A DNA stretch of 63,639 bases, the filler included, from Asterionella formosa (Eukaryota): NCBI GenBank assembly GCA_002256025.1. It is 13 parts of 13 records of this genome, joined end to end, with 100 filler letters (N's around TTAATTAATTAA, not from the genome) between each part and the next. Parts side by side here need not be neighbours in the genome. Positions count along the whole stretch, not along the records: positions 1 to 23,422 come from NKIB01002483.1; 12 more parts are not named here. One strand, written 5' to 3'. The translations under genes were made by a program, and so were the position numbers. Each line of letters starts with the position of its first letter. Positions within the stretch are counted from its first letter, which is position 1. The notes under the pieces are model-generated. The model saw only the letters and a list, made by a program, of their open reading frames with translations. It was not told where the DNA came from and did no database searches. Positions 612 through 63,639 of this stretch are shown here, piece by piece.

Positions 612-1864
612 ACTATAGTGTTTCCATACCTACAAAATAATTCTCGGCAAATCCAGGCATGGATCAGCTGAAATCAATGCCTGATGCCTGATGATACCAG
701 CTGCCATCAAAGACAAAGAAATGCAGCATCAAGCAAGGCTTGCAGTTTTTGAGAAATTTGAAGACAATGAGGACCAGCAACAAATGATGTATCTGGAATG
801 GTTCAATGGATGGCAGCAGTTGGGTTTAGACACAAAAATCGACAAAAACACTACTTTGTAGATGTTCATGAAAAGCGAGACACTTTGGCCTATCGACCAC
901 CAGCCATTCTATACTGAAAAAATGCAAGAAGCACAAAAAGTTGAGTGCCCATTTATGGATTCAAGTTTCAGTAGTGCAACAAATACAGGTGCATGGATGA
1001 CTCCTCCCTTTCATTAGATATGCAGCCATGTAGCGATAATTCTACAAGACCTATAGGATTTGTAGTCTCGTGGTCATCATTTCCGCACTGTATATACCAG
1101 TAGGAGTCATGTATGCATGCATGCTGCGATAATTCTTACAAGACATAAAAATTTGGTAGCTTGGGGGTAATCACTTCCGTACTGTATACAGGGGGGGGGT
1201 TTACATGCATGACAAACAAGCAACTCCGGTATAAAGTGTTATCTTTAATCAATAAATTTTGATTTGTTTATCCTAATACCTATGATCATATCATACTGAT
1301 CATATGATAAACGGTGTCATTGATGAGAAAATGAAAGATCAAAATATATTTTCAGGCATTAGGATCAATTGATCTTAAAAATATGATCAAATGATCCTAA
1401 ACACATGAGGATATTCAGTTTTCCACTGCACTATTATGGTACTCCTACTATTGTGGTATTTCCATGATGGAAGTAGTACCCAGCAAGTATACAGTACTAC
1501 CAGTAGGCCATATGAATTTTTCGACTGTATATGGTCAATGTGTCTATATACATAAATGTATGATTTAGACCATTTGAAAATTGGTGATGACTCCCGATTA
1601 TTAAGGGGCTTAATTAAGTGAGCCACTGACTTGTAAGAACAAGAATTGACACAAAACAAATTGAAAAAATTCAACAGGTCGTGGAAAACTATGAACTCAT
1701 CATGCATTGTATTTTTTTAATTATGTATAGTCAAAATTGATTTTAGTATACACAGGATGTGCAGTATAATGAGCGTGTTTCAAACTATGCAAATGTTCAA
1801 CTATATATACATTTAATCTTAAAAATCTTTATATGTATGTATTCATGGCTGAAACATTTGAAAT

Positions 1865-2120
1865 CATGTTTTTCATGTTCCTTGTCATGCATACAGTTTG
1901 CTCCTGAAATGAAGGATCATCACACATCATGATGACATGGAAAACGAAAGTTATCATACAGCACAATGATACTTGCCTGCTTAGAAGAGAAGGGCAGAAT
2001 CAATTGATGGTAAGAAGTCAAGAGCAAATGCCTTTCATGTTCCTTGTCATGCATACACTTCCTGAAATGAAGGATCTCAAGCAACACATGATGCGAAAAA
2101 CTGAAGTGACAATACAGCAC
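1865..2120. repeat. Tandem duplication, period ~165 bp
   Basis: TTTCATGTTCCTTGTCATGCATACA...CCTGAAATGAAGGATC...CATGATG...ATACAGCAC occurs at ~1871 and ~2033. Confidence 0.75.
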
Positions 2121-2239
2121 GATAAGAATGAGTGAATATGATGGAGAAGGGCGGAATCAACAGGCTGTGCATAGCATCACGGTTTGTCAAGAGCAAATGC
2201 CTAGATGATCAATTTCTGGGATTTAACAAATACGGAATG

Positions 2240-3184
2240 ACTTGTCCCCTTTCGGTGATTCAATAGCTCCTTTTCCATTTGGTGGCTGGCCAACCATCAA
2301 TATGGACAATAGAAATCGGGGGTAAGTGCTACCATCTTTGGATAAATCCACAACTGTTAGAAAAACTGACTCATGTGTGTTGCTTCTTTCAGGATAATGG
2401 TAAACAAACAGTATTTGTAAGTTACAAACAGCAGCGTTGGATCCTATTTAGCTATTGATCGATACTTGCTTATTCAATGTTCAAGTGACACATTATTTTG
2501 CAGAAATATGAATCTTTTACTTCATCAATTTGTGGTATGTGAAGATTGAAGTGAACTGCGTGTTGTTGTGTAAGCAAAACTTGAACAGCTAGCTAACAAT
2601 GAATTGCTTCTCTTTGTTAGTATGGCTGATTGGAACAACGAAACGGATTCAATAGTAATAGGAAAATGCGTGAATGCAAAGAACTCAGATCCGTCTGGAG
2701 TAAATGGAACAAATCAGGGAAACAACGGCAAGGCAACCAGTACAACAACCTTGAGAATTGGATTGGGGGGAAGGTGGAAGTGAAAGCACCAATCATTGCT
2801 ATGAGAGAATTTTAGAACATTCTGTAGCCACTCAAGATATAGAAACATAGTAGAACCATGCTTAAATATTGTTCTAAATTTCTATCAATTTCATCCTATT
2901 TTAGACAGTGATATCGTTGAGAATTACGATCATGCTAAGATAGATGTATGACAAAAGTAAACACATCATATGACCATGTTAAACAAATTATATGATGCAA
3001 TGGTATTACAACCTTGATAACATCATCATACTTCAAGCTCGGTAAAAGTTTACTGTATGATCATAATTATTTGATACATTGATCATATTTTTGATCGAAA
3101 AACTATCATATATGTAAAAATCCTGTGCCAATTAAAGTACGATACACTTGATCCTTTATGCATGTTTGTTTTTATCTGCAGACG
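2240..3184 (+). repeat. Dispersed repeat family A, diverged copy 1 (intron/micro-exon-like structure)
   Basis: Shares blocks with 5560-6705 and with the reverse complement of 62520-63639, e.g. TGATTCAATAGCT, GGTAAGTGCT, TTCAAGYTCGGTAAAA, AAAATCCTGTGCCA, GTACGATAC.CTTGAT, TTTTAT.TGCAG. Confidence 0.7.
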
Positions 3185-4339
3185 TACCTTGCAGTCATTC
3201 CTCCTGATGTCAAGAAATCGGCTGCTATTGACGATCCTATTTCTTATTGTTGATTGTAAAGTCTTTTGTTTTCCTCTGCCAACCCACCTCCTCCTGCTCA
3301 TACTCTAGTTCCAGTCCAAAAGTACTACTCTCATCTGCCTCAGACTCCCCAACACGTATACAGTTCTGGTCCGCCGCCTCCACAACAAGCAATCTACCAT
3401 TCCGACCTTTGCCCCACCAACAATATTGTATAATCCTATCAGCAGCAATATTTTCATCCTCCACCCATCTGCAAATAAGAACTATCATATTTCCATTATG
3501 CATCATAGGATTGTGATCATCTGATCATAATTTTTCGTTATATCATCTAATAATTTCGATAAATGCCCTTGTAATTTAAATAGTAAACCCTTTGACTACA
3601 TATATTTAAGCATTATATGTATTGTTTCTATTAGATTCCTGTATTTGAATTTCTTGGTAGGATAATGGACGAGTTTTGAACCGAATTACGACCTTTGTAG
3701 TGATTGAGTTCAGTGACCAATTGATAATATCCTTTGGCAAGTGCAAAATGTTTTTCCTCAGTTTGTCATGTACTTCTTGGTCCGTGCGATTAGAAAATTT
3801 AGGATATGGTACCATGTCATCCATCTGCATCCAGGAGTTATTAATGGTATCATCAACAGGAGCCATTTTTCTTGTATCAACAACTGAAAAAGAAATGTCA
3901 TCATCGCTTTCAGTATAAATTATGGGAGCCCTTGTACTAGTAGCTGATGGTGTCCCTATCGATGATGGGGTAGTACCCCCACTTACTCCCTGTCTCCGAT
4001 TGGGTTGCTTTGGATAATTGCCTATTCTTTTTTTCTTTGTAAACTCATTTTGGTACTTGCTTCTTTGTTCCATACCGGCAGTATTTGCCACATGTTGCTT
4101 GTTTCCATGAATCTCCTTATGGTTTTTTGAAGACATTGTGCTACTAGATAAGTGTTGTCGTTGTCTTCCTTAAAGTTCGATGATCTTAAAAAATCAGGTG
4201 TTGCTAGCTACAATGCATGAAATGAATCATCAGCCACTACAAACAATATTTTACGCTGTCTAGATATGATACCATAAGACCAACAGTGCTATTTACATTA
4301 TCATATACAAAATCAGAACCGAGTTTGAGTAATAGCATA

Positions 4340-5021
4340 TCTTGTTTTCAATTATACGATTATACAATCATGATACTATGATGCTTTACTGTCCCAATGT
4401 AGTAGCAACAGTCATGAACATATGGTGTTCTGTTGCTCGCTTACTGCTCCGACTACTCTCTTTCAATTTTACGATTGTACAATCCTAAAACTATGATGAT
4501 TTACTGTCCCGCTGCAGTAGCAACAGTCATGAACATATGGTGTTCTATTGCTCGCTTACTACTCCGACTATTCTTTTTCAATTTTACGATTTTACAATCA
4601 TTAAACTATGATGATTTACTGTCCCTCTGCAGTAGCATCAGTCATGAACATATGGTGTTCTGTTGCTCGCTTACTACTCCGACTACTCCCTTTCAATTTT
4701 ACGATCGTACAATCCTAAAACAATGATGATTTACTGTCCCTCTGCAGTAGCAACAGTCATGAACATATGGTGTTATTGCTCGCTTACAACTCCGACTATT
4801 CTTTTTAAATTTTATGATCATACAATCCTAAAAATATTATGATTTAATGTCCCGATGCAGTAGCAGCAGTCATGAACACATGGTGCTCTGTTGCTCACTT
4901 ACTAATCCGACTATCCTTTTTCAATTTTATGATCATATGATCCTAAAACTATGTTGATTTTCTGTCCCTCTGCAGTAGCATCAGTCATGAACATATGGTG
5001 TTCTGTTGCTCGCTTACTACC
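4340..5021. repeat. Minisatellite, ~6 copies of a 115-bp unit
   Basis: CATGAACAYATGGTG recurs at 4413, 4528, 4643, 4758, 4871 and 4986 (spacing 115,115,115,113,115); the whole unit is conserved. Confidence 0.95.
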
Positions 5022-5559
5022 TGGGACTCTGACTACCTGGTACCCCCAGTATATCACTTCCTACCTGCTACTGGTACTCTTTATATATATGATAAAATGT
5101 TATTGTCATATGATATACTGGTACACATGAAGAACTCCCGCCCAAAAAGGGTCTTGAACAATTTGCTACCAAAATCCTTGCATATAAATAATGATACAAA
5201 TGGGTTATGACTTAGTACACCAATTGAATGGTCTAAATTATTAGTTCCAACGGACATAGAAAATATTGATGCAAACAAATTTCAAAAAAACAGAACCGGT
5301 ACACGAAGTCGTGGAAAACAATGGAAATATCGTGCATTGAATATTTTCGGATTATCTATATGCGAATATGATCATCTCAACAATACCAGACGTTCCATAT
5401 TGAGAGTGCCTTTGATTTCAATAAATGTACGACACTAGGTATATTTATATATTTACAAATTTTATAACTATATACATGGCAAATATATTTGAAATCGTTC
5501 TGTCATGTAACAAACAATGTCTGTTTCATGAAAAGAAATATCGTAGTAAAGCAAATGAC

Positions 5560-6705
5560 AAGGAAAGGTTAGGTAATAACGAAAAACATTGTGGCTTCGA
5601 CACATTGCGCCTTCGAAGGATGGAGTATGTTTAAGGTAATGAAGCCATCAATATGGTACTTGGATGACAATCATTGGGAGGACAACAACACATTGTAAAC
5701 TAAACGCACATTTCCTTTTTTCTCAGTTGATTCAACAGCTTGTTTCGCTTGTTGGGGAGCACCAATGTAAAACAAAAGAAAATTGGTAAGTGCTCTTGTT
5801 GTTGGACCTATTCACTTCTGATGGATCATAACTGACGGACACGCTACGGTTCCCTTCTCTCAAAGTTAAGCTAACGAAAATGAATCGGTAAGATTTATTC
5901 GACAAGATTCGATACCTGAAACTTACTTATTGAACAATTTACTGACAATTTACTATTACAGACTTATGCATCACTTGCTTTGCTATGTGGTAAGTGAAGC
6001 AAGCAAGAGGATACGATGGAATGGCGTGATATTGCTTGTGTCAGTGTAACATGTCTAGTTAACAAGTCATTCCTTCTCATTGTTACTGTAACTGCACAGG
6101 ACAAAAAGACCGATCAAACAATGGAATAGTTGGCGAGTTCAGAATGACACTAACAGCAGCGAGAGAGACGCAACATTACTAGTAAGGCATTGCTTGGCAC
6201 ACAATTCAAAATAGAGGAATAAAAGGGCGAGACAGGAATATATATGAGACGAGTGGAGAGAAGAGAAACATTCCTCAGGTAGCTGTCAAAACAGAAATAT
6301 CAATGTTAATTTTTTGTTAATTAAATTTTGATCCATTCCAATCCTTTTTGAACAATTCTTGTGATTAGAATTATGATCATGTTTACGATAGATTTACGAT
6401 GAAACATTTCACATGATAGCATAGAGTTGAGCTGGTTTTAGGATGTGTTGTAGTAATAATTTACATCTGGCAATCACAAGAATTGAAAATAATCTGAGGA
6501 GTTTTATGATATTGATGAGAAATGTTGTTGATCAGTTGATATACATTGTGTGATGATTATGTTCTTATTGTCATTTAACTTCAAGTTCGGTAAAATATTA
6601 ATAAATCATAGTTTTGATCCAAAATTATCATATATACGAAAATCCTGTGCCACTTAGCGTACGATACCCTTGATTCTATATGCATGATATTTTTTATTTG
6701 CAGAC
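5560..6705 (+). repeat. Dispersed repeat family A, copy 2
   Basis: Colinear with the reverse complement of 62520-63639 (e.g. TTCGACACATTG..CCTTCGAAGGA, CTCAGTTGATTCAA, ACTGACAAT.TACTATTACAGAC, AAAATCCTGTG.CACTT.GCGTA). Confidence 0.85.
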
Positions 6706-7535
6706 GCCAGCGCTACCACCATAACAAATGTACTACTCCCATCATGCTTCTCCTCCAATACTATCATCTTCCGCCTCCAGCCAGTCAACCACCAGCCGAC
6801 TCCGACTCCAACCCCAGCACCCACCCATCCATCACAACATCACCAACATCCAGTGGCATATGCAATTACCCCAGCTCCTCCTTCATATTGGAAAAATCTC
6901 ATTTTCTGTGGTGACAGGTGACATAACGGAAAAGGAGAGTGTTAGTTTTTGTGACATTGAACTTAATAATGTGTTTTGTTGTCGATTTTCTCAACCCCCC
7001 TCCTCCCTACTTAAATCATCATCTCGTCGCTTAGCTTTGATGTTGATGAATTTTTCGATGGTCCAAAATTTTTTCTTTTCCGTGGTGTGTCTTGAACTTT
7101 TTGAAAAACCCGACTTCTACCGTTATTTTGCCTGTCATGCTTACATCGGCAATTTTATTGCCGAAAAATTCGATGTGCTCCATATCTCTCCATATTGGGA
7201 CACTCCTGTTGGCACATGAATGGCTTGCCAAGTAGTACAGTATCAACCCGGTTTCATATGTAGCGGTACATAGGAATGGGCTGCTGCACATTACTACGAT
7301 TATAGGTCAATACCAGCAGTTTTGACGACATCATACACCGGAGCAAATGCTTAACATTTGCCGGCTGCAACAAGGACTTAATGCAAATTGCCCATTCGCA
7401 ATCAATCAATTTTTAGTAGATAATAGCCTTATTTCACATCTTTTGCTTCGATTCTTCATGTTAATACTGTTGTCGTAGTCTCATTTGCTGTCCAGCTACT
7501 GTAAAAGTTTTGTATCTACTCGTAGCATCGTGGTT

Positions 7536-8130
7536 TAAAGATTGCGCATCTCTAAATAAGATGAAAATTGTGCCAGAGGCGACTTAAATTTTCGTGATCA
7601 ATATTAGTGCTATTATGATTATTTTTTTACGATTGTACTACCTATTTCGTGTTTGATATATGTATCCAAAAGGAAAGCATAGTTCTCATTTTTCGTCGAG
7701 ATATTCGCTATTTTCACCATGGTCCACACTGCAACGACATGATGATGAAGGATTCTCCAGCCGCTTGCAACTACAGAACTACCGGTGCGTATTCAGTATC
7801 ATAGTTATAGCTACAGTATGATTACATAGGTTGTACGTGACTGTGATGGCAGCAGCGTTGAAATGATGACGTCACAAAAAGCAAAGTTGCTACTTTAAGC
7901 AAAACAAATGAGAAGCAAGTGGCAGAATAAGCAAAACAGATTGGTCTCAATATTTCGGGCTAAATCAGACTAATGCCAAATAAATATAGGAACAACAAGC
8001 CGGTCGGGTTGGTTTATTAAACAGATGTCAAGAAGAAACACATATATCAATTTGGAATTGGAATCAGTATTGCCGGTACAAAGTCATATGTGGAACTAGA
8101 TATAGCAAAATTACCGCAACTTGCTGGTAC
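7536..8130 (+). repeat. Dispersed repeat family B copy
   Basis: Colinear with 58355-58993 (AAAGATTGCGC.TCTCTAAAT ... GATGATGAAGGATTCTCCAGCCGCT ... AGCAAAATTACCGCAACTTGCTGGTAC). Confidence 0.9.
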
Positions 8131-8221
8131 TCGAGGTTGCTGCCCTTGTATACGCTAGTATGAAATGATTTAACTTAGGTGTTGCGATTTCTTTCTATTT
8201 ATTAAACGAGACAGTGTAAGA

Positions 8222-8460
8222 GTAGTTCTTGTGAGCGACTGGAGAATCCTGCATTATGCCGTCTCCGCCTTGACCATGATGAAATGAGGGAATTTCGCCA
8301 CGAAAAATGAGGATGATGCTTTGCTTTTGGGTACTACATATATCTAACACGACATAAATAATACAATCGAAAAATTAATTCATAATAACATTAATTTTGA
8401 CAACGAAAATTGAAGTCGCCAATGACTCATTGCTTCATGTGGTTTAGACTATGCACAATC
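8222..8460 (-). repeat. Inverted, diverged partial copy of repeat family B
   Basis: Reverse complement aligns with 7540-7785 (GGCGACTT.AATTTTCGT, AAAGCAT..T.CTCATTTTTCGT, AGGATTCTCCAG.CGCT). Confidence 0.75.
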
Positions 8461-12145: not shown

Positions 12146-14877
12146 ATGATGATTGACGTGGAACTGAGTAATGGAGGGGAATCATCCGCCGAGGGACATG
12201 ATCTCTTTACCAATATGCCACAAAGCGCAACGATTGAATCGCCCTCGATATTAAGCTGCCAGCCATACGTATTGGGTGGCGAATTGAACTCGCACTACGC
12301 CAAAGCAAGGCCGACCAGAGAGAGTGTACTTCAGCGCTTATCAGAAGCACTCATGCGACGATCGCTAACCAAGGTAAGTACTGGTACAAGCACCCCGAGT
12401 GCGTGTTGTCGTCCTGCGCTGTGTTGTGGCTCAGTTGTTCTAACCCCTCGGTGCTTTGTTGTTTTCCTTGTATACTCAATCCGTACTCACGATTGGTAGA
12501 TTGATTTATCACAGCGAGGATTGCAGTCATCAGACGCACGCTTAGTCAAAATGGCCCTGCTGCAGAATTCAAACCTTTCCATTCTCAAACTAGGTTACAA
12601 CAACTTGGGCGATGAAGGTATTAATACATTGGCTGTCGGGATTTCAGCACACCGCGCTTTGGGATCGCTGGATCTTGGATTCAACCAAGTTGGCGATGAA
12701 GGGATTAGATCATTGGCAGCTGCTTTGTTTGGATCTGCCTTGCATACACTCTACTTGGCAGGGAATCACATGGGTGAAGAAGGAGCCATGGCATTGGCAG
12801 ATGGTATCAGGAGAGGGTGTGCTGTGACCAAACTGCATTTGACTGGAAACCGATTAGGGCCAGATGGAGTGAAAGCAATAACAGAAGCCATTCTAGAAGA
12901 TGAACTGAGAAGGAGAGAAACATCATATGTTGTCAATGACACTCGAGGGATCCAAGAGCTCTTTTTAGGAGGAACAAGCATGGGACCAATGGGTTGCCAT
13001 GCAGTTGCTACAATGCTAAGCCGAAGCAGAACAATACGAGTGATATCAATGGCCAATTGCGGTATCACAGATGATGAGGTTGCCACTTTAGCTGTCAGTA
13101 TCAAAGAAAACAGAGAGTTGCTCCCGCTAGAAGCCTTGCAGCTGTCATTCAATGCAATCACTTGTAAAGGCCTTGATTTGTTGACAAACGCGATTTGGGG
13201 ATCTCAAATCATCCGTGAACTCTTATTGGATAACAATGAGATTGGAGATCGAGGTGCCCAGCAGATTGCCAACATTTTGCCATACGTGAAAACTCTTGAA
13301 GTCTTGGACGTTGGTTTCAATGGAATTAAATCACAAGGGATGAAGGCATTAATGAAAGTTGTCGCAGAAACGCAACACTTAGTATCACTTTCGGTTTCAG
13401 GTAACCCAATTGATACAGGGACTGCAAAGGCAGTGGCATATGCTCTGGCATATAACCAATCCCTAAAGTGTTTATTTCTTGATCATTGTGATATTCAACA
13501 TGAAGGGCAGAGACATATTGTGGCTGGTTTTGTTTCCAATTGTGGGATCATGCTGAGGAAACTGACAGGATTCCGGATAGGACGTAAGTATTTTCAGTTA
13601 AATTGTATCGCAGAAAATGATCCATGTCCTTTAACTCATTTTTTTCTGCAGCTGTCATTGTGACTATTGAATTGCCATCAGCGCTGGAGCACTGGACAAA
13701 TGAACAAGTCTTGAATTTTATTCATTTAATGTGGGAGCAATCAAATCAATCCTTATGTGTTGATACAGAAGAACTTGAAGTTGACCCACTTCAGTTCCTT
13801 CCTGATCCCAGTGGTGAAGTTGGACGAGCTGTTGGTCCACTGGATGCCAGTACTGTGGTTCAAGTTGCCAAACGGGCCTATGCTTCCCTTGGAGAGACCG
13901 GCTATGATGTGTTCTCAAGACATGGAGTTGACGACAATGCATTTGACTCACCGTTAACTGAGGATGCAATCATGGTTGAAGGAGCCGACGGAGATTTTAT
14001 TCAAGACACTGACTTGATCCCAACTGCTTCTGTGGCCATGACTGGGAGTAAAGAAGCATTGTCGTTGGCAAATGAAGGTCATTTATCAAATAAGCCAACG
14101 AAATCCTTTGTGGCTGTTCCAGCAAAACCAGCAAAGCCAGCAATCCCTGACCCACACAGAAAGAAACGAATCGTGGATTGGTTATGCAAGAACATTCAAC
14201 ACTTGAATGAGCTTTCACAGATAGCATTCAATTCTGGTGAACTTTGGCGTCTTCATCAACATTATTTCACCCCAGTTGTCAATGAAAGTGGAGGGAATGT
14301 GAATGATTCATCCTTACTTGAATCCGCAGATACTGTTGGAAGGATGGTCAACAGTGTTCCAGATGTCTCTAGACATGGTGCAAACCCAAATGATGCAAGC
14401 ATGGTTACTCCATCCACACAATCAATTGAAGACCAGTGTTTCATTCCTGCAAGTGATCCATCGTTGCAATTATCACCAATGGGAGTACAGTTGACCATGC
14501 TTAAACGTAAAGTTTCATATCGTTTTTTGGGTGATGCTGACAAGCCGACAAGCAGCATGCATTACGTGAATGAACATTCCGTGGCAAAGATGATCGAGGA
14601 TGGCGCAGGTGTCCAGGCGATGCCACCAAGAACGAAAAGAGCCCGTCGCAACAAAACACGTATATCCTTCCTTCCCAGAATCAAGGCAAAGTTGGAGTCA
14701 TATTTAGATGTGTGTCATGAAAAGGCATTGATTCTAATGCGACAGCTTTACTTTGTAGAACATGCACTGCTAGCAGGAAAGATCAACCCCAACGAGCCAT
14801 CCGGCGAAAATAAAGTGACACATCTCTTTGGGCTCCTGGCGGATGAGGCAGAAATGATTCTTATTGATATGGTGTAA
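12146..14877 (+). CDS. Leucine-rich repeat protein (RNI/NLRC3-like LRRs); 3 exons: 12146-12373, 12500-13583, 13652-14877
   Basis: Repeated LxLxxNxIGDEG motifs. GTAAGT...TAG intron 12374-12499 and GTAAGT...CAG intron 13584-13651 join the three track ORFs in frame. Confidence 0.9.
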
Positions 14878-39849: not shown

Positions 39850-42800
39850 TTACATAGGATCAGTATAAGGGGCAAGGATGATAGTAAAAGTTTTTCCATC
39901 ATCAACAACTGTAATGGTTGCAACTTTTGTACTGGCACAGGATTCTTGGGAACCTGGATTGATAGCTGTTGTTAATGTAGTGCTCCTTAAAGGTGGCACA
40001 TTACTGAAGTTGTTATGTTCAACATACATGGAAACTAGTGCAGGCCCACTGCCACTGTCCCCATCATCATAAATGTACCATCCTGCATTCAGGGTTATGT
40101 TATATGTATGTCCTCTTGCATGATTGATGTTGTCATAGTACCTCCCAAGAAGTACTTTGACTTTTTCAGATCCTCCAAAATCAGTGTTGTCACCAAAAGA
40201 TGTCAAGTACGTCGTTGTGTTAGGACCACAATCATAGGATCCCACTGTTGTTCCATTAAATTCAGTACTAGTATCTAAGTCAAGGAGGTCCGCTGGCCAT
40301 GAATAAGTGATGATAAGAGATACTCCAGACAATGTATCTAGAATCAGATTGCCTCCACCATCAATGCCATCCGTTTCATTCCCTTTGTAAGATGTCACTG
40401 CATTCAATTTGGTCATGACCAAATGTCGCCCTATCCCGAATCTATCCTCAATCATAGTGACATTGAATAGAGGCACAGCTTGGAATGCAAACACTTCACC
40501 CGGCATACCAGACCTAAGAGCAAGAGCTGCAGCAAAGATAAAATCTCCAGCATTTTGGTCAGCTCCAGTTCCTGAACCAGTATCAGCTAATATTACCACT
40601 GTTGTGCTAAATGGGTCTCCAGAAATAGGATCACAGCGATAGATAGCAAAACCTGTCAGATTGCCAAATATGTTCCTTGGAAGTAGACTTACATTTACTG
40701 ATATTGCAATTGATAATGATTTGCCTGCTGGGATAAGTTCAGGGTTAAATTGGAATGAACTGGGGAGTGGTTCGAAATTGCTTGGCTTTTCACTGGGAAT
40801 GACAACTGCACGTGTGGGAACTGAAGTAGGTGTTGCAGTTGGTAAGATAGTAGGAGATACAGTTGGGAACCGAGTAGGCATTCCAGTGGGAGAAGTAGTA
40901 GGTGCAACAGTGGGACCTAAAGTAGGTGTTGCAGTTGGCAAGACTGTAGGAGATACAGTTGGTAAGACAGTAGGAGGTACAGTTGGAACCGGAGTAGGGT
41001 TTGCTCTGGGAAAAGCAGTAGGTGCAATAGTAGGAGTTGAAGTAGGTGTTGCGGTTGGTATGACAGTAGGAGATACAGTCGGGACCAGAGTAGGCATTCC
41101 AGTGGGAGAAGAAGTAGGTGCAACAGTGGGACCTAAAGTAGGTGTTGCAGTTGGCAAGACTGTTGTAGATACAGTTGGGACCAGAGTAGGAATTCCAGTG
41201 GGAGAAGCAGTAGGTGCAATAGAGGGAGCTAATGTAGGTGTTACAGTTGGTAAGACAGTAGGAGGTACAGTTGGAACCGGAGTAGGGTTTGCTCTGGGAA
41301 AAGCAGTAGGTGCAATAGTGGGAGTTGAAGTAGGTGTTGCGGTTGGTAAGACAGTAGGCAGTACAGTTGGGACCAGAGTAGGCATCCCAGTGAGAGAAGC
41401 AGTAGTTGCAATAGTGGGAGCTAAAGTTGGTGTAACAGTTGGTAAGACAGTAAGAGGTATAGTGGGGACCAGAGTAGGGTTTCCAGTGGGAGAAGCAGCA
41501 GGAGTTCCAGTTGGCAAGATGGAAGGCGATAAAGTTGGAGACACAGTGGGTAGTGAGGTTGGTACCTCAGTTGGAACAAAAATGGGCGATGTACTTGGCG
41601 AGGATGTAGAAAATATACTCGGGTGCAATGTGGAAGTACTAGTAGGAAGAAGGGTAGGAGTAGCAATTGGTGTTGGAGTTGTAGCAAATGTGGGGATAGA
41701 TGTTGGAGCACCAGATACAGTTGAAGGAGCAGATGTTTGCGGGATGGTGATCATTGGAGATGTATTTGGGCTTCCAGATGGGGTAGCAGTAGGTCCTGCG
41801 GTCATAGTGAGGACTGGAGTATCAGTTAGCACAACGGTTTCTGGAGAGGTTATTGTTGGTGTTGGAGTTGTAGCAAATGTGGGGATAGATGTTGGAGCAC
41901 CAGATACAGTTGAAGGAGCAGATGTTTGCGGGATGGTGATCATTGGAGATGTATTTGGGCTTCCAGATGGGGTGGCAGTAGGTCCTGCGGTCATAGTGAG
42001 CACTGGAGTATCAGTTGGCACAACGGTTTCTGGAGAGGTTATTGTTGGTGTTGGAGTTGTAGCAAATGTGGGGATAGATGTCTGAGCAGCAGATGTAATT
42101 GAAGGAGCAGATGTTTGCGGGATAATGATCATTGGAGATGTACTCGGGCTTCCTGATGGGGTAACAGTAGGTTCTGTAGTCACAGCGATGTCTGGATTAA
42201 TAGTTTGACCAATTGAGATTTCCACAATTGAGCTAAAGCCAGAAATCATGGAAAGACCACTTAAATATGCTGAATCCAATATATACATTTCGGAGCGTTT
42301 CAATTCTTCTGCAGGACTCAAAGGATTTGGTCCAATTTGTTCTGTGAAGATTTTAATTGTCACTGTAAGTTTATTTATAGAGGCTTCAACTAGAAAACGA
42401 ACCGACTGATTTGTGGTTTGAGAGGACAGTGATGTGACATTTACAGCCAGAAACATTGGCGGATTTTGATATTCTGATTCAAAAGCAGCATTCAAATATC
42501 CCCTGGTAAAGTTTGTGAATAATTCCACTTCAATTGGACTCAATGAGGAAATACCAAAAAGCGATAGTGATAAATCAAAGAAGTTTCTTGAAATCTGGAT
42601 TATTGAGCCGACTGTTGGTATCTGTGTTGTTACCGATATTGGTAAAGATATAGACGCAGCAGATGAAGGTGATGGAGTGGAAGTTTCCTGGATGGGCACC
42701 AATGTATTGTTATTTAAGGCCCCTGTTGGCACACGTACAGGTCCTGGAGTCAGCTCAGAAGTTTTTGTGCTGGTGGTTGGAGAGTCTGTATATGCAGAAC

Positions 42801-45762
42801 TGGGCAATATTGTAGGACCAATACTTATCTCTGAACTTGACGGCAAGGTGGTTGCCGATTTGGGTATCTCATTCTGACTCGGAGCCGAAGACTTGAATAC
42901 TGGGGATCGTACATATGGTAATGCAGTTGGGGTAATCCCAGATCCAGAGACTGTGGGAATCTCGGTTGCAGTATGGGGAGATGTACTAGACAATGAAAAA
43001 AACGAAGGAGGTGATGAGGGAGCCAATGATGCTGAAACTTCAAATGTATCTCCAGTAACAAGATCCGATATGAAGAGTGGATCCAGTACACCAACTTCTG
43101 CCAACCTTTGAATTGTCATCTGGAACAATACTGAAAATTCTTCAATTGTTGGAGCACGATTTTCAGCCAGGACTGGACAATAGCAATCATTGGCAGCAAC
43201 CACTTGCAAGCGCCGATCTTGTGTATAGCTAGCGCTATCAGATGTGGGTAGTAAGAGCTGGCGACGTACAGCATCATTAAACAACCTGGAATTACTGCTG
43301 CAACCTCGACATGTGCCACTGATCCTGAAACGATAGCCAAATGAACTACCACGCTGTGTAGGCTTTCGAGTAGGAGCACGAGTGACAATACGCTGTACTG
43401 TCTGCAATGATCGACGATTAGAACCATTGGTGATGTTAACCTCGATGGCCAAAGCATTCGTGACCCTGCGAAACAATAAATCGCAAGTTTCATTGTTACG
43501 TGAGTTCAGTGTGTTAAAGGTGTCAACCACTTCCTGCTCCAACACTGAAATTTGTGATGGTGTAGCTTTGCTGGGATCTCCAACAAAGCCAACATCCAGG
43601 AATGATTCAAAATCTACAGCAGCAGCACAAATGTCAGGTTCTACTTCGAATGTGTTGCTATTTACAACATCAGCAACAAAAGTAGAATTCAACAATCCAC
43701 CGTCCACAAGATTCTGGATATTCATCTTGAAAGATGTTTCAAATTCTTCAATCGTTGGAGCACGATTTTCAGCCAGGACTGGACAATAGCAATCATTGGC
43801 AGCAACCACTTGCAAGCGCCGATCATGTGTGTAGCTAGCGCTATCAGATGTGGGTAGTAAGAGCTGGCGACGTACAGCATCATTAAACAACCTGGAATTA
43901 CTGCTGCAACCTCGACATGTGCCACTGATCCTGAAACGATAGCCGAATGAACTACCACGCTGTGTAGGCTTTCGAGTAGGAGCACGAGTGACAATACGCT
44001 GTACTGTCTGCAATGATCGACGATTAGAACCGTTGCTGATGTTAACCTCAATGGCCAAAGCATTCGTGACCCTGCGAAACAATAAATCGCAAGTTTCATT
44101 GTTACGTGAGTTCAGTGTGTTAAACGTGTCAACCACTTCCTGCTCCAACACTGAAATTTGTGATGGTGTAGCTTTGCTGGGATCTCCAACAAAGCCAACA
44201 TCCAGGAATGATTCAAAATCTACAGCAGCAGCACAAATGTCAGGTTCTACTTCGAATGTGTTGCTATTCAAAACATCAACAATGAATTGAGGAGTCAAGG
44301 AATCACCTGCCACTAGATCATGGATTGCAATCTTGAAAGATGCCTCGAATTCATCAATTGTTGGAGCACGATTTTCAGCCAGAATTGGGCAGATGCAATC
44401 ATTCGCTACGTCCAATTGAACATTTTGGCCATGGGAGTAGTAAATACCGAAAGAGGAGATTGAGAGGCCCCGACGAACAGAATTATGAAACAACATGGAA
44501 TTCCTGCTGCACCCTTGACATCTGCCAGTAACCCTGAAGCGATAGCTGAATGAGCCACTACGCTGTGGACCGCTGATTATGTCAACTTCGATAGCCAAAG
44601 CATTCGTGAGCCTTCGAAACAATAAATCGCAAGTTGCATTTCTGACTGAGTTTAGATTGTTGAAGGTATCAACAACCCCCTGCTCTAGAATCGAGATTTG
44701 TGATGGTGTGACCTTGCTGGAATCGCCAATAAAGTTGATGACCAGGAAAGATTCAAATTCCTCTTTTCTGTTGCATGCTCCTGATTCTGATTTCAGAACC
44801 ACCACAAAATCGACCCTTTCAACAAACAGAACGGCAAAAGAGGATTGCACGAATGAGTTGAATCTGGATGGAAAGCCTGACGGTGGCAAACACGTATAGC
44901 ATGGATCCATATCGATTGTAGAAGGAATGATAGAGGGTGAAGGAGAATATGCCATTATAGTCTTGCCGTTCGATTCCCTATTTCTTTTGTGCTTTCCCTT
45001 CTTACTACTCCTCGTGCTCCCTTTCCGAGTATTTCCGTTATCCCTTCTGTTTTTCCCTCCCTTCTTGTTCGCTTTATTTTTATTTTTACTCTCATCCTTC
45101 ATGTTGTTATCAACACGCTCGCTACCTTTGATTCTATGAAGCTTCAGCCCTCTCTGGGCATTGTCATCTGCGAAAAGCCTCATGTCGTCTCCGCATCCTG
45201 AGCAAAGACCTTGGATAAGAAAACGGAGTCCAAATGATACAGCACTTCCGTTACTGCTCAGGAAACCATCATTTAAGTCTGTTTGATTCCATACAGAAAC
45301 AACAGAGGTAAGGACGCGGAAGGTTCCATTCTCACAATCTTCTGAACTAAAAGAGTTGTAGCTTTCCATAAACAGAAGCTCAAGTTCTCTCAGCTGATCT
45401 GGCGATACAAGATCTGGGTGCCCAGTGAGCGTTGCAGAGACTTCATATTGAAACGGGCTTGGAGGGGGGAGATCTTCACACACAGTGATATTGGCCATAT
45501 TTCTTTCCACGACTTCTTCTTCTCCATCCTTCTGCTCGCCGATTCTGCCGCTCTTAATCAATGCCCCTTTTTGTTTTCGGAATAAGGCGGGGTGCAAGTC
45601 TTTGAAGGTTTCCTTGGGGTGCGATTTTTCTGGATTCTTGGCGGATTCCACTTTCAACAGCAACAGTAGCTGAGTAACGACAAAGAATGCAATCGACAAG
45701 GAACGGCGGACTTTAGCCAATCTGCTACGCCTCGATACCGGAGAATTAATATCAGGGAGCAA
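39850..45762 (-). CDS. Large secreted/surface mucin-like protein with four Cys-containing repeat domains, RxL sites and long Pro/Thr (PT..P) repeats
   Basis: 1970-aa open frame; N-terminal hydrophobic segment; repeated (F)ESFL...LEQ...TFN...C...F.Y.F...G.C.GC...LF domain; PTxxP tracts. Track start is TTG; a possible ATG-AAG mini-exon at 45894-45889 (donor GTAAG at 45888) could splice in frame at the AG at 45805. Confidence 0.9.
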   Translation of the reverse strand: MLPDINSPVSRRSRLAKVRRSLSIAFFVVTQLLLLLKVESAKNPEKSHPKETFKDLHPALFRKQKGALIKSGRIGEQKDGEEEVVERNMANITVCEDLPPPSPFQYEVSATLTGHPDLVSPDQLRELELLFMESYNSFSSEDCENGTFRVLTSVVSVWNQTDLNDGFLSSNGSAVSFGLRFLIQGLCSGCGDDMRLFADDNAQRGLKLHRIKGSERVDNNMKDESKNKNKANKKGGKNRRDNGNTRKGSTRSSKKGKHKRNRESNGKTIMAYSPSPSIIPSTIDMDPCYTCLPPSGFPSRFNSFVQSSFAVLFVERVDFVVVLKSESGACNRKEEFESFLVINFIGDSSKVTPSQISILEQGVVDTFNNLNSVRNATCDLLFRRLTNALAIEVDIISGPQRSGSFSYRFRVTGRCQGCSRNSMLFHNSVRRGLSISSFGIYYSHGQNVQLDVANDCICPILAENRAPTIDEFEASFKIAIHDLVAGDSLTPQFIVDVLNSNTFEVEPDICAAAVDFESFLDVGFVGDPSKATPSQISVLEQEVVDTFNTLNSRNNETCDLLFRRVTNALAIEVNISNGSNRRSLQTVQRIVTRAPTRKPTQRGSSFGYRFRISGTCRGCSSNSRLFNDAVRRQLLLPTSDSASYTHDRRLQVVAANDCYCPVLAENRAPTIEEFETSFKMNIQNLVDGGLLNSTFVADVVNSNTFEVEPDICAAAVDFESFLDVGFVGDPSKATPSQISVLEQEVVDTFNTLNSRNNETCDLLFRRVTNALAIEVNITNGSNRRSLQTVQRIVTRAPTRKPTQRGSSFGYRFRISGTCRGCSSNSRLFNDAVRRQLLLPTSDSASYTQDRRLQVVAANDCYCPVLAENRAPTIEEFSVLFQMTIQRLAEVGVLDPLFISDLVTGDTFEVSASLAPSSPPSFFSLSSTSPHTATEIPTVSGSGITPTALPYVRSPVFKSSAPSQNEIPKSATTLPSSSEISIGPTILPSSAYTDSPTTSTKTSELTPGPVRVPTGALNNNTLVPIQETSTPSPSSAASISLPISVTTQIPTVGSIIQISRNFFDLSLSLFGISSLSPIEVELFTNFTRGYLNAAFESEYQNPPMFLAVNVTSLSSQTTNQSVRFLVEASINKLTVTIKIFTEQIGPNPLSPAEELKRSEMYILDSAYLSGLSMISGFSSIVEISIGQTINPDIAVTTEPTVTPSGSPSTSPMIIIPQTSAPSITSAAQTSIPTFATTPTPTITSPETVVPTDTPVLTMTAGPTATPSGSPNTSPMITIPQTSAPSTVSGAPTSIPTFATTPTPTITSPETVVLTDTPVLTMTAGPTATPSGSPNTSPMITIPQTSAPSTVSGAPTSIPTFATTPTPIATPTLLPTSTSTLHPSIFSTSSPSTSPIFVPTEVPTSLPTVSPTLSPSILPTGTPAASPTGNPTLVPTIPLTVLPTVTPTLAPTIATTASLTGMPTLVPTVLPTVLPTATPTSTPTIAPTAFPRANPTPVPTVPPTVLPTVTPTLAPSIAPTASPTGIPTLVPTVSTTVLPTATPTLGPTVAPTSSPTGMPTLVPTVSPTVIPTATPTSTPTIAPTAFPRANPTPVPTVPPTVLPTVSPTVLPTATPTLGPTVAPTTSPTGMPTRFPTVSPTILPTATPTSVPTRAVVIPSEKPSNFEPLPSSFQFNPELIPAGKSLSIAISVNVSLLPRNIFGNLTGFAIYRCDPISGDPFSTTVVILADTGSGTGADQNAGDFIFAAALALRSGMPGEVFAFQAVPLFNVTMIEDRFGIGRHLVMTKLNAVTSYKGNETDGIDGGGNLILDTLSGVSLIITYSWPADLLDLDTSTEFNGTTVGSYDCGPNTTTYLTSFGDNTDFGGSEKVKVLLGRYYDNINHARGHTYNITLNAGWYIYDDGDSGSGPALVSMYVEHNNFSNVPPLRSTTLTTAINPGSQESCASTKVATITVVDDGKTFTIILAPYTDPM
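41672..42140 (-). repeat. 189-bp in-frame tandem repeat in the PT-rich region
   Basis: GTTGGAGTTGTAGCAAATGTGGGGATAGATG at 41672, 41861 and 42050. Confidence 0.9.
43139..44350 (-). repeat. Near-identical 606-bp in-frame tandem duplication (202 aa) inside the mucin-like gene
   Basis: Shadow ORFs 43116..43493 and 43722..44099 are offset by 606 nt; the nucleotide sequences are almost identical. Confidence 0.95.
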
Positions 45763-46768
45763 GTACGGCGTTTCAAGGTTACATTCATCCGTAATGGCAA
45801 GCGCCTGATCTGAGGGTGGGAAAATAATGTGAGCTTGGATCCTAGCAAGAGCTCTGATCTACTTCTTCTTTCAGCTTTTCCTCCTTACCTTCATTCCGAA
45901 GATAACAGGAGATGTTCATCTTGAATATACCAAAGCGTTCAATACTCTTGCTTATGCTTGCAGTTAGGAAAATAATTTTTAGTTTTTGTTGGGATTATTT
46001 AGTTCTCGTGCCTTTTTTAACAAGGAGCAATTTTCCAGAGGTCTCGAGTTACACATGTTCCATTGACACTTGCAATGATCCACTGTACAAAGTACACATC
46101 CATATATGTATTAACTGGCTATTTACGTGCATGATGCTTGCCAACTAATATTCGATACCATCTTATTTTTAATTACAGTTCAGCAGACAATGTAATTACC
46201 GGCATATACTATTCTCGGTATTATATTTCATTTAAATGAACCTTTGTTGGAGGCAGTGACGTTGGGGTCTGGATGCACGCGTGCTTAAGCGCGAAGACGT
46301 TCGGAGAACTGAAAGAAGACAGAGCGAGCCGCAGCGCCGCTCTTATATGATTACAATATGCATGGTACATAGCGATGCTATAAAATGTAATAGTCCACCG
46401 TATTTAAATTGACATTTAAGCAGATGACTCTCTCCTCATGATTTTCGATAGTACGAGGTACAATATCCTTCCTAATAACGTTCCGTAGGAGAAAATATTC
46501 GAACATCGCAACAAATTCTACATAATAATGGGGTCATAAGATGTCAACTACTTTGACAATTCGTTGGGGAGTCATTCACTTCCAAGAGGCATTTCCTTGT
46601 TTGCTACATAGCCACATGAATGAGGCCACTCCACCACTGGTATAATATGTGCGTATTGAATGACATTTAGGAACATGATGCTTGCCTCGATAGAAATCAC
46701 AATGATACAATTCAGAATACCTGGTGGAGCACCAGATACCAGTAATAAACGGAGCCTGGTACCGTATA

Positions 46769-49934: not shown

Positions 49935-50159
49935 NNNNNNNNNNNNNNNNNNNNNNNNNNNNNNNNNNNNNNNNNNNNTTAATTAATTAANNNNNNNNNN
50001 NNNNNNNNNNNNNNNNNNNNNNNNNNNNNNNNNNTAAGAAAAGTACCAGTATTTTTTTGGAAGTTCCGGTAAAGGACGGTTAACCATACCGGTAAACCGG
50101 TATCATTGTGGTGTTTCATCATCCCCCTGTCGTCCACATCATGCACGGCTTCACCATTA

Positions 50160-51457
50160 GGGTCGTTCTTATCATTTTTTTTCGTGTATCACGGAATTTG
50201 AATTTTTTTGAAAATGTATCAGCAACGGTAACTCGATTTGAACTGAATTTCATTCATTCCAAAAGTGTCACTGTATCACTAATTTGTGATCACATTGTAT
50301 CATGGAGTAAAATGAATCTTCAACGGCAACAGGCTGGCGAAGATCATGTGTATATCCCTCCAGAATATAATGATGGTCTTGATATCAAGCAACAACAAAA
50401 TATAATTACCGGGAAACTAAATATAATATTAAAAACACACATTTGCATGAATCATGTCGTCGCCATTTGATTTACTTGATGATAATGACGATGACAGTAG
50501 TGATCTTGATTTCTTCTTCCTCTGTCATTTAACTAAGGAAGCAGAGGAAAAAGAACACTCATCCAAACGACAAAGGCGACGCTGTAAACGGCAGCTTCAG
50601 TCATCTGAACGACGACGACAACGAAGGCACAAGTGGCACCACGAAAGAATCTCCTGGCAATCACATGTCGAGAAACTCAATCACGAGATTGCTTTCGAGA
50701 AGACATACAGAATGTCACACAGAGCATTCAAAAAACTCACCTCCATGCTGGAAATTCAGATTGCAGGGAATTATTCCAAATGTGGCACTTCTGAGCCCAT
50801 AATTCCCGAAATTGTGGTAGCCATTGGTTTGCGATGGCTGGCTGGTGGCAGTTACATCGACATTCGTCATGCCTACGGTTGTAGCATTGCTTCACTTTAT
50901 CGATGTCGTGATTTGTTCATTGATGCTGTACTAAACTGTGAAGAACTCGAAATTATTTTTCCAAAAGAAAAAGAAGAATTTATCAAATTGGCTTCCAGCT
51001 TTGAATGCAAAAGCTCAGAGGGCGTGATGAGAGGATGTGTTGGTGCTATTGACGGCTTCCTTGCCACCATCAACCGCCCGACTATAGTTGAAAGTGGCAA
51101 CAACCCTGGTTCATTTTTTTCCGGTCACTACATGACTTATGGAATCAATGTCCAGGCTGTTTGTGATGCTGACTCAAGATTTATTTATTTTGGTGTAATT
51201 GCACCGGGAAAATGCAGTGACCAAGTAGCTTTTGAAAAAACTTCCATTTTCGATCAAGTTGCAGCATTCAACACAGGTTTTTATCTGGTCGGCGATGCAG
51301 CTTACACATTGTCTGATGTAATGCTTGTTCCCTTTGTTGGCTCACAACGTGATGATCCAACACAGGATACATTTAACTTTTTCCTTTCACAGCTAAGGAT
51401 AAGAATAGAAATGGCATTTGGTCTTCTTCAGACAAAATGGTGTGTTCTGAAAAAAAA
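50160..51457 (+). mobile_element. PIF/Harbinger DNA transposon, left end (copy 1)
   Basis: Starts GGGTCGTTCTTATC directly after TTA (50157-50159); identity with copy 2 begins exactly here. Confidence 0.9.
50454..51457 (+). CDS. PIF/Harbinger transposase (HARBI1-like, DDE_Tnp_4), truncated by contig end
   Basis: FEKTYRMS...F..L, LRWLAGGSY.D, CVGAIDG, INVQAVCDA, LVGDAAY, FNFFLSQLRIRIEMAFGLL (D-D-E triad). Confidence 0.95.
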
Positions 51458-60694: not shown

Positions 60695-61698
60695 TTTTTT
60701 TTCAGAACACACCATTTTGTCTGAAGAAGACCAAATGCCATTTCTATTCTTATCCTTAGCTGTGAAAGGAAAAAGTTAAATGTATCCTGTGTTGGATCAT
60801 CACGTTGTGAGCCAACAAAGGGAACAAGCATTACATCAGACAATGTGTAAGCTGCATCGCCGACCAGATAAAAACCTGTGTTGAATGCTGCAACTTGATC
60901 GAAAATGGAAGTTTTTTCAAAAGCTACTTGGTCACTGCATTTTCCCGGTGCAATTACACCAAAATAAATAAATCTTGAGTCAGCATCACAAACAGCCTGG
61001 ACATTGATTCCATAAGTCATGTAGTGACCGGAAAAAAATGAACCAGGGTTGTTGCCACTTTCAACTATAGTCGGGCGGTTGATGGTGGCAAGGAAGCCGT
61101 CAATAGCACCAACACATCCTCTCATCACGCCCTCTGAGCTTTTGCATTCAAAGCTGGAAGCCAATTTGATAAATTCTTCTTTTTCTTTTGGAAAAATAAT
61201 TTCGAGTTCTTCACAGTTTAGTACAGCATCAATGAACAAATCACGACATCGATAAAGTGAAGCAATGCTACAACCGTAGGCATGACGAATGTCGATGTAA
61301 CTGCCACCAGCCAGCCATCGCAAACCAATGGCTACCACAATTTCGGGAATTATGGGCTCAGAAGTGCCACATTTGGAATAATTCCCTGCAATCTGAATTT
61401 CCAGCATGGAGGTGAGTTTTTTGAATGCTCTGTGTGACATTCTGTATGTCTTCTCGAAAGCAATCTCGTGATTGAGTTTCTCGACATGTGATTGCCAGGA
61501 GATTCTTTCGTGGTGCCACTTGTGCCTTCGTTGTCGTCGTCGTTCAGATGACTGAAGCTGCCGTTTACAGCGTCGCCTTTGTCGTTTGGATGAGTGTTCT
61601 TTTTCCTCTGCTTCCTTAGTTAAATGACAGAGGAAGAAGAAATCAAGATCACTACTGTCATCGTCATTATCATCAAGTAAATCAAATGGCGACGACAT
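60695..61698 (-). CDS. PIF/Harbinger transposase, same protein as 50454-51457, truncated by contig end
   Basis: Translation identical to copy 1. Confidence 0.95.
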
Positions 61699-62217: not shown

Positions 62218-62519
62218 GCACTCCTCCTCATATCTTGTGCGGCTTGCTCGTCCATGTATTTCGTTCCAACCCTTGACTCACTCACTATTTTAAAGTCTTG
62301 TTCAGTAATTTGTAATCCGAAACCGAATTCTCGATATTGAAAGGTAGATACTATCATTATTCCCATTCCATCATCCTTGGGGACAATGTAGGTTTCCTTG
62401 TTGGGTCCATACCAGCACCGCTGCTTTCTTGACATAGTGAATTGTTTGAATATACACTCATCATGCCCGAAGATTATTAATGGCTTGGCTCCTCTTGGAA
62501 ATTGTATGCTTAGGTTGCC
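62218..62519 (-). mobile_element. IS630/Tc1-mariner-like DDE transposase fragment
   Basis: GNLSIQFP..KPLIIFGHDECIFKQF...W.GP......PKDDGMGIMIVSTFQYREFGFG resembles the first-Asp (HDE..F) region of this superfamily. Confidence 0.6.
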
Positions 62520-63639
62520 TGCAATAAAAAGTATCATGCATATAGGATCGAGGGTATCATACGCCAAGTGCCACAGGATTTTCACATATATGATTTTTTT
62601 GGATCAAAACTATGATCACTGCATCCAATGACTATGATGATTTCTTAATATTATACCTAACTTGAAGTATGATAATAAGAACATTATCATCATACAATGT
62701 ATATTAACTGATCAACAACATATCTTATCAATATCATAAGCCTTCTCATTTTATTTTCACTTCTTGTGATCGCAAAATATAAATTGTTACTACAACGCAT
62801 CCTAAAATTAGCTAAACTCTATGCTATCATGTGATTTTTTCATTGTAGCTATGTCTATCTTAAACATGATCATAATTCTAATCACAAGCATTGTTCAAAA
62901 TAGATTCAAATGGATTATAATATAATTATCAAATGTTGGCAATGATATCTATGATTCTACAACTACCCAATGTTTCTCTCGCCACTTGTGTAAATGTATA
63001 TTGTTCCTGTCTATTCTGAATCTTTTTCCAGGCAGTGCCTAATGCCGCATCCCTTTCCCTGCTGTTAGTGTCACTCTGAACTCGCCCACTATTCCGTTGT
63101 TTGATTGGTTTTATTGCTGCTGTCCTATGCAGTTACAGTAACAATGAGAAGGAATGACTTTTTAGCTATCGGTGGTAATGTTACACTGACACAACACCAC
63201 GCTATTCCATCGTATCCTCTTGCTTCACTTAGTACCACAAATCAAAGCAACTGATGCATGTGTCTGTAATAGTATATTGTCAGTCAATTCTTGAATAATT
63301 AAATATCAGGTATCCAATGTTGTCGAATAAAACTTACCGATTCGTTTTCTTTTTTTTAACTTTGAAACAAAGGAAAATGTGTGCGTCAGTTATGTTCTTC
63401 CAACAGCACTTACCAATTTTGTTTTGCATTGGTGCTGCATGACAAGCGAAATGAGCTATTGAATCAACTGAGACGAAAGGAAATGATTAGTTTACTTTTT
63501 GTTGTTGTCTTCATCCCAACGACTGCCATCCATGCTGTACCACATTGATAGATTCATTATCTTAATCATACTCAATCCTTCGAAGGCCCAATGTGTCGAA
63601 GCCTCAATGTTTTTCTTTATTGCGTAAACTTTTCCTTGT
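62520..63639 (-). repeat. Dispersed repeat family A, copy 3 (inverted)
   Basis: Reverse complement is colinear with 5560-6705. Confidence 0.85.

Follow-up and report, generated by a model that had tools for sequence, protein, structure and literature searches.

A spliced non-coding unit in the right arm of an abundant non-autonomous DNA transposon of Asterionella formosa

The dispersed repeat that occurs in three copies in a 63,639-nucleotide stretch of Asterionella formosa DNA (assembly GCA_002256025.1, hereafter the window) is the right arm of an abundant non-autonomous cut-and-paste DNA transposon, in which a small, outward-facing spliced unit is set apart. An earlier note on this DNA had proposed, as one option, that a mobile element carries a multi-spliced lncRNA or a 5'-leader cassette. 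Support for this option comes from the inverted repeats at the ends, the 2-bp duplication, flanks that are unrelated among copies, RNA contigs with splice joins and the excess conservation of donors and branch points, and the reading of the repeat as a transposon arm with a spliced non-coding unit is held with high confidence. The features are compiled in Table 1.

Table 1. Features of the transposon, its spliced unit and its copies in the window
Feature	Coordinates	Strand	Evidence or remarks
Copy 1, right arm of subfamily A, right end at 3184; introns 2322-2392, 2417-2503 and 2535-2620	983..3184	+	left end outside the window
Left target-site duplication, CC, 2 bp	3464..3465	.	
Complete non-autonomous DNA transposon copy (holds copy 2), 3,241 bp	3466..6706	.	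inverted ends and CC on either side
Left terminal inverted repeat, starts CATCTGCAAAT	3466..3488	+	20/23 bases equal the reverse complement of the right end
ORF-X, orphan, 176 aa, probably frameshifted near residue 127, points to the left end	3606..4136	-	predicted ORF
Internal tandem array, 115-bp unit, 5.9 copies	4345..5020	.	
First intron of the earlier note, unsupported; probably promoter and RNA 5' end	5625..5726	+	
Exon 1	5710..5785 (start approximate, ~5710-5727)	+	RNA contigs 5712-5785 and 5716-5777; three X13 contigs depart from the DNA at 5785
Intron 1, 80 nt	5786..5865	+	GTAAGT, CTGAC 5832-5836, AAG; X13 loose end at 5785 runs into sister-copy exon 2
Micro-exon 2, 22 nt	5866..5887	+	23 nt in RNA contigs, 24 nt in subfamily A
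Intron 2, 74 nt	5888..5961	+	GTAAGA, CTGAC 5942-5946, CAG; X13 joins exon 2 straight to exon 3
Micro-exon 3, 28 nt	5962..5989	+	31 nt in subfamily A and L010
Intron 3	5990..6129	+	GTAAGT donor; acceptor TAG 6129 seen, CAG 6099 inferred
Exon 4	6100..6190	+	abundant RNA cover, fading at ~6190-6230
Last intron of the earlier note, unsupported; subterminal region and terminal repeat	6182..6703	+	
Right terminal inverted repeat, ends ...TTTGCAGACG; houses the proposed final acceptor	6684..6706	-	10/13 copies end CAGACG
Right target-site duplication, CC, 2 bp	6707..6708	.	
Fragment, family of 500-1000-aa proteins with transposase-like motifs	62218-62519	-	homolog search
Copy 3, subfamily B arm located on a short piece of its own; broken third donor, end without the last three bases	62519..63639	-	mid-ORF in an unrelated transposase-like gene

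Ends, copies and interior of the transposon

The terminal inverted repeats of the element at 3466-6706 are 23 bp in length, and excision of the element together with one CC restores a continuous Pro/Gln/Tyr-rich frame. The CC duplication was observed in one of the two elements for which both ends are available; in the other, metagenome locus L003, TG stands against TA and the flanks fail to join. The right-end sequence CAGACG was scored in 13 copies, comprising the three copies of the window and ten metagenome loci that were found by a pattern taken from about 40 bases inside the common right end. The last base of the right end differs in L002 and L006, and copy 3 ends three bases short. The left ends read CATCTG or CTTCTG, and the left end type of position 3466 recurs at the far end of L003 (around 4375), which contains both end types. 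The 30 bases past the right end are unrelated among 12 copies, with a mean identity of 0.26 over 66 pairs. The 2-bp duplication, the terminal inverted repeats and the dispersed copies with a sharp end thus identify the family as a non-autonomous TIR DNA transposon. The search for termini, target-site duplications and an autonomous partner that had been suggested in the earlier note was accordingly successful with respect to the termini and the 2-bp duplication, and no transposase partner of the element was found.

GATCA-type hexamers were counted near the ends at 3-8 per 250 nt, compared with a background mean of 0.53 and a 99th percentile of 4 (n=220), for motifs that were picked by eye and that also form internal clusters. 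The subterminal pattern gave no match in prokaryote genomes. Two loci in viral contigs carried the terminal-repeat pattern and were rejected as chance, lacking blastn similarity to the window. Additionally, only the last 80 bases of locus L006 (794-875) are common with the family and its interior is unrelated, and ends of this type may also belong to a second family. The flanks at 3185-3465 and 6707-6900 combine into a decayed Pro/Gln/Tyr-rich frame that was struck by two family members within 280 bases.

The three copies of the window are homologous, as claimed in the earlier note, over a wider region than it had given (1578-3184 versus 5198-6706). Copies 2 and 3 align over 5558-6703 with 76% identity. 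Copy 1 is far more distant; local alignments of 1578-2105 with 5198-5705 and of 2204-3184 with 5663-6707 score 173 and 279, respectively, and shuffles (10 each) reach at most 54. Subfamily A comprises copy 1 and the loci L001, L002, L003 and L005, to which copy 1 is 85-87% identical; these four metagenome copies are mutually 94-97% identical. Subfamily B comprises copies 2 and 3 along with L004, L007, L008 and L010, and L009 consists of the last 70 bases only. The family is clearly abundant: DNA run X1 yielded 84,732 contigs on the arm, with a summed depth of 0.3-3.5 million versus 1,090-7,374 beyond position 6716, a sum that does not represent a copy number. The metagenome sources of the matching contigs were algal and freshwater. 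A 1.1-kb segment of L003 (2297-3428), which copy 1 lacks and of which L005 has at least a part, starts with TGT, finishes near ACA and contains broken frames; it is either another element nested there or a segment that belongs to the consensus of subfamily A. Moreover, a broken protein-like frame lies within subfamily A elements at window positions 640-990 and at 3428-3629 of L003, and a Pfam search of this frame gave no significant match.

The window is composed of separate pieces joined by N-padded linkers, with pieces of about 1.4 kb from position 46887 onwards, so that there is no physical linkage of copy 3 with copies 1 and 2. Copy 3 interrupts an unrelated ORF, since in the four homologs examined out of 20 found the protein continues upstream of the junction (residue ~400 of 618 in P0044); the transposase-like ORF behind copy 3 was for this reason rejected as the partner gene. 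A protein of Fragilaria crotonensis shares 65% identity with the ORF adjoining copy 3, and we take the interrupted ORF at 62218-62519 to be Tc1/IS630-like by its motifs. No Pfam DDE family was detected in seven homologs of this fragment; one homolog has a SAP domain, and the Atlas lead is DDE_3 on 13% of one cluster with a score of 0.88. Elsewhere in the window, 50153-51457 and 60695-61999 represent two 99.8% identical copies of an element with a DDE_Tnp_4 (PIF/Harbinger-type) transposase ORF and hence a recent family, 7536-8460 and 58355-58993 are 84% identical copies of another dispersed repeat with an internal inverted segment, and a 2002-aa ORF at 39850-45858 (minus strand), which probably encodes a cell-surface protein, contains repeats of 202 aa as well as a long tandem region rich in Pro, Thr and Ser.

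The interior of the element is occupied by ORF-X and a tandem array. ORF-X has 42 relatives at E<=0.001, which are 45-250 aa in length, 47-89% identical and in many cases frameshifted. No Pfam family was assigned to ORF-X, and its relative P0002 has an Atlas recognition of 1362. The idea that ORF-X is the start of a longer transposase was rejected, none of the 42 matches being longer than 250 aa. On the minus strand of the array at 4345-5020, upstream of ORF-X, each 115-bp unit holds donor-like (GTAAGC or GTAAAT), TGAC and acceptor-like (TGCAG) sites, which could constitute a repeated intron-exon leader for ORF-X. A hAT dimerisation match in L003, one of 11 pieces scanned, fell short of the cut-off (E=0.064) and is not significant, and no Fanzor ORF was detected among the ORFs scanned.

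Splicing of the unit and conservation of its signals

For the RNA check, contigs of four of the 24 runs listed were compared with 5060-7100 at 80% likeness: those of the RNA runs X13, X15 and X17, which come from two studies, and those of the DNA run X1. All 17 splice motifs that were checked in copies 1 and 2 are present where the earlier note had placed them. With respect to the chain of five introns deduced from these motifs, the three middle introns are spliced in sister copies according to RNA joins, and the first and the last intron gained no such support. Three contigs of the polyA run X13 depart from the DNA exactly at the donor that follows 5785, and their next letters are exon 2 of a sister copy (23 nt), joined without a gap to the start of exon 3; in another contig exon 3 is joined at 6130, which identifies TAG at 6127-6129 as an acceptor in use. 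The runs X15 and X17 each contributed one contig that starts from 6099 with 28 unplaced letters ahead, as fits the use of CAG at 6099 as acceptor, and an X15 contig covering 5712-5785 has 19 letters left over at the donor. The X13 depth amounts to 3262, 3680 and 2170 in the exon bins versus 13.6, 0, 37.7 and 40 in the bins between exons, the zero belonging to the intron 2 bin (5888-5956), and in these bins the DNA run X1 keeps a depth of 1.3-3.2 million. The letters of the joined RNA deviate from those of copy 2 and were assigned to sister copies; copy 2 itself may or may not be transcribed. The visible joins come from the one run X13, which was made from the same sample as the best DNA source, and an intron-less DNA template is possible. 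The 15 of 34 joints listed are all from DNA, and none of them is at these introns; a join at 5727 may exist among the other joints or among 640 loose ends outside the listing.

The contigs carry no strand, start or end, and the direction was taken from the GT-AG polarity; we infer the direction, the start and the end of the unit. The first intron of the earlier note (5625-5726) is not supported: RNA contigs that begin at 5712 and 5716 continue unbroken into the exon, and X13 has no depth at 5543-5680, although missing cover in contig data carries no weight by itself. The last one (6182-6703) fares no better, as an X13 contig at depth 1588 runs through its GTAAGG donor and its TTTGCAG is located within the terminal repeat, three bases from the end of the element. 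The assumed splicing of the cassette to an acceptor at 6703 is likewise unsupported, the sequence in question being the transposon end. Past exon 4, the X13 depth declines from 2170 (6095-6163) to 481 (6164-6232) and 3.5 (6233-6301), and a spliced RNA of about 190-220 nt is predicted from these boundaries. A proposed diatom initiator motif reads TCAHW (PMC4686930, available part) and that of oomycetes YCAYTYY (PMC3599244, available part). At position 5710, copy 3 fits both motifs, copy 2 and L004 miss the first base, and the motif occurs in 68% of upstream regions, so that the initiator likeness provides a weak hint only. Two further contigs deserve mention: one from X13 tracks the start of exon 1 from 5727 to 5740 and then carries 49 unrelated letters resembling a 5' UTR, possibly from a host gene on the promoter of the element, and one RNA contig from X15, at a depth of about 1133, joins the arm at 6180-6238 to telomere-like repeats.

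By a rule that was framed once the motifs had been seen, one out of 2000 dinucleotide-shuffled versions of 5200-6706 produced a chain of three short GT..branch..AG introns with exons of 10-40 nt between them, and a chain of as few as two was absent from all 74 background tiles. Two introns of a neighbouring gene, placed where its frame breaks (12374-12499 and 13584-13651), have the same GTAAGT donor and similar lengths. Translation of the spliced models (187-247 nt) revealed no ORF shared between copies, in agreement with the earlier note. Folding of four models was no better than that of shuffles (z -0.26 to 0.95), the shuffle of non-overlapping letter pairs being a rough control, and a search against Rfam over 1000-7100 gave no match at E<=1.

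The conservation of the splice signals was assessed by comparing four metagenome copies of subfamily A with copy 2, which is effectively one comparison. Donors and branch points matched at 31 of 33 positions (94%; 17 of 18 for donors and 14 of 15 for branch points, in a count that ignores an insertion in the third donor of L002). The corresponding values were 74-76 of 109 (69%) for exons and 131-133 of 222 (60%) for intron interiors, and the excess at donors and branch points has p ~0.0003 according to randomly placed blocks. Copy 1 versus copy 2 gave 29 of 33 (p=0.001), and no excess conservation of donors and branch points was detected between copies 2 and 3 of subfamily B (28 of 33, p=0.31). 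Acceptors matched at only four of nine positions between the subfamilies because they have moved: in the third intron, subfamily A uses an upstream TAG where subfamily B reads TAC, and the downstream YAG of B corresponds to TGG in A. The relocation of the third acceptor is as expected if it matters that the RNA is spliced and the exact product does not. Of the claim that donors, branch points and acceptors persist, the part on donors and branch points is supported in the comparison between subfamilies.

Decay is evident in present copies. The third donor is broken in copy 3 and L002, the third acceptor is lost in L005, and the region is deleted in L004. In copy 3, which according to the earlier note keeps most of these sites, the third donor was lost by a 3-base insertion, and the donor corresponding to 6182 is lost as well. 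The same 3-base insertion, which changes GTAAGT to GTACTAAGT, is present near 63225 in copy 3 and in the third donor of L002, i.e. in one copy per subfamily, and possibly represents footprints that excision left at TA sites. The donor at 5625 carries a mutation in L004, and no corresponding donor exists in subfamily A. Exon 3 and the left end share a match of 10 bases, which is not significant, since 22 of 300 shuffles gave as long a match.

Proposed maintenance of the unit and alternative explanations

The splice signals persist while exons, exact acceptors and frames drift, which argues that the act of spliced transcription is what may be kept. According to the proposed mechanism, the unit, situated about 1 kb inside the right end and reading toward it, would be transcribed from a start near 5710-5727, the spliceosome would remove three introns of 70-140 nt, and the resulting RNA of ~190-220 nt, seen in polyA libraries, would end near 6190-6230, about 500 bp before the end of the element. 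Selection would act on transcription with efficient splicing and not on the RNA sequence. Splicing or transcription would keep the arm active or less silenced, copies with intact signals would continue to be mobilised by transposase supplied in trans, and copies losing the signals would become dead ends. We consider the case evenly balanced that transcription with splicing is kept and helps the element to stay active or unsilenced. A stronger version is put forward only tentatively: the family may maintain a dedicated outward-facing, multiply spliced non-coding unit, and splicing itself may be needed for transposability, for example if the arm thereby resembles a host gene to silencing or opens the end for the transposase.

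The main alternative, which we rate as less probable than the proposed mechanism, is that the exons are an orphaned non-coding 5' leader. It would have belonged to a transposase gene or an accessory gene in autonomous parents, and a deletion between exon 4 and the subterminal region would have removed the coding sequence, so that the signals were conserved in the parents and not in the derivatives. Non-autonomous elements are generally internal deletion derivatives (PMC2613891, available part), and a 5' leader would show kept signals and drifting exons. Consistent with this explanation, the similarity between subfamilies is lowest just behind exon 4, with an identity of 0.52-0.57 at 6173-6322 where a deletion point could hide, and the splice signals decay freely in present copies. 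On the other hand, no ORF remnant was detected from exon 4 to the element end in ten copies of two subfamilies, and among the six DNA loose ends listed for X1 there is no branch into other sequence at 6190-6320.

A micropeptide gene, in which exons 2-4 would encode 19 aa from the exon 2 ATG in subfamily A and 12 aa in the spliced RNA of subfamily B, is unlikely. The ATG has the same frame relative to the introns in both subfamilies, every copy seen has an exon 3 of either 28 or 31 nt, and the distances from ATG to donor differ by 3. However, only the phase of this frame of 12-19 codons is kept and not its stop or length: the stops differ and give lengths of 12-28 aa, the ATG is lost in copy 3, and a stop lies inside exon 2 in L001. 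Furthermore, no signal-peptide-like stretch was recognised by eye, and the exons are just slightly better conserved than the intron interiors.

It is quite unlikely that the unit acts as a portable promoter or gene trap, with a minor isoform from the 6182 donor to the terminal-repeat acceptor joining the leader to the flank and thereby driving neighbouring DNA or obtaining a flank-derived 3' end. The terminal repeat, read outward, does offer a T-run followed by YAG in 13 of 13 copies, and acceptors in transposon ends are reportedly used in maize dSpm. Yet the acceptor-like sequence is explained by the constraint on the terminal repeat, RNA contigs crossing the element end carry unspliced subterminal sequence, and the 6182 donor is read through in X13. 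Copy 2 and L010 have this donor intact, in copy 3, L004 and L008 it is altered or gone, and none was seen in subfamily A. A neutral passenger, i.e. host sequence captured by the element or introns clustered by chance, spliced simply because splicing is possible and under no selection, would agree with the lack of excess conservation within subfamily B and the frequent decay, but is most improbable in view of donors and branch points conserved at 94% versus 60-69% around them and of acceptors that were relocated and not lost.

Non-autonomous DNA transposons are usually seen as two ends with inert filler, and in the present family this filler contains a spliced non-coding unit, the donors and branch points of which have persisted through a sequence divergence of ~35-40%. 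If selection acts at the level of the element, the family would offer a direct test of whether introns help selfish DNA to stay active, with hundreds of natural copies with and without intact signals that can be compared for age, methylation and expression. If the exons are an orphaned leader, they would point to a diatom transposon family with unusual termini that is yet to be identified. Repeats yielding spliced polyA transcripts also mimic lncRNA genes, which calls for caution on the part of annotators.

Comparison with known systems

Non-coding snoRNA host genes have short, poorly conserved non-coding exons and well-kept introns. In the transposon arm, by contrast, the intron interiors are least conserved, there is no Rfam match and the unit lies inside a transposon, although orphan snoRNAs outside Rfam are possible. 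In the case of introner elements, the whole element is spliced out of host transcripts; here, the outermost 60-90 bases of the element stand unspliced next to the flanks in RNA contigs, and the left end has no GT donor. Micro-exon protein genes of the MEG type are characterised by exon lengths that are multiples of 3 and by a conserved secreted peptide, whereas the exons of the present unit measure 22-24 and 28-31 nt and share no ORF. The suggestion of the earlier note that the repeat is the relic of a micro-exon gene family is not supported, given the missing shared ORF and the location of the unit inside a transposon. Among the papers surveyed by their titles and abstract openings, in a collection without most subscription journals and Repbase reports, none describes an algal non-autonomous DNA transposon that contains a spliced non-coding unit.

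The fRNA of Fanzor systems is likewise a non-coding RNA near the right end of a eukaryotic transposon that reads toward this end (PMC10530073, available part). It is structured and abuts and passes the end, according to the same text, whereas the RNA described here is predicted to be unstructured, is spliced and stops about 500 nt short of the end.

In its build the element resembles CACTA and Plavaka transposons; it is not assigned to a superfamily here, since the termini fit neither and no transposase was found. For Plavaka, the available text of PMC12730594 gives a duplication of 2 bp (PlavakaA) or 2-3 bp (PlavakaB), 2-5 bp for the CMCT clade as a whole, and the termini TGT..ACA (A) and CATCA..TGATG (B). 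The 2-bp duplication, with one clean case, falls within the CMCT range, the termini also start with C, and the left end of copy 2 matches CATCA of PlavakaB at four of five bases. The element termini as a whole fit neither Plavaka type, and that text describes no spliced non-coding unit. The ends of EnSpm/CACTA elements, 5'-CAC..GTG-3' in the same source, are not matched by the element, and no Tnp2 transposase was found. En/Spm and its defective derivatives nevertheless share with the present family short terminal inverted repeats, a short target duplication and multi-exon spliced transcripts, and possibly also repeated subterminal motifs and the mobilisation of non-autonomous derivatives in trans (PMC2613891, available part). 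They differ in that the termini here are CGTCTG/CATCTG instead of CACTA and the duplication is 2 bp, and in that tnpA and tnpD of En/Spm are long coding transcripts, whereas the unit of the A. formosa transposon is non-coding, comprises about 200 nt and faces the nearer end.
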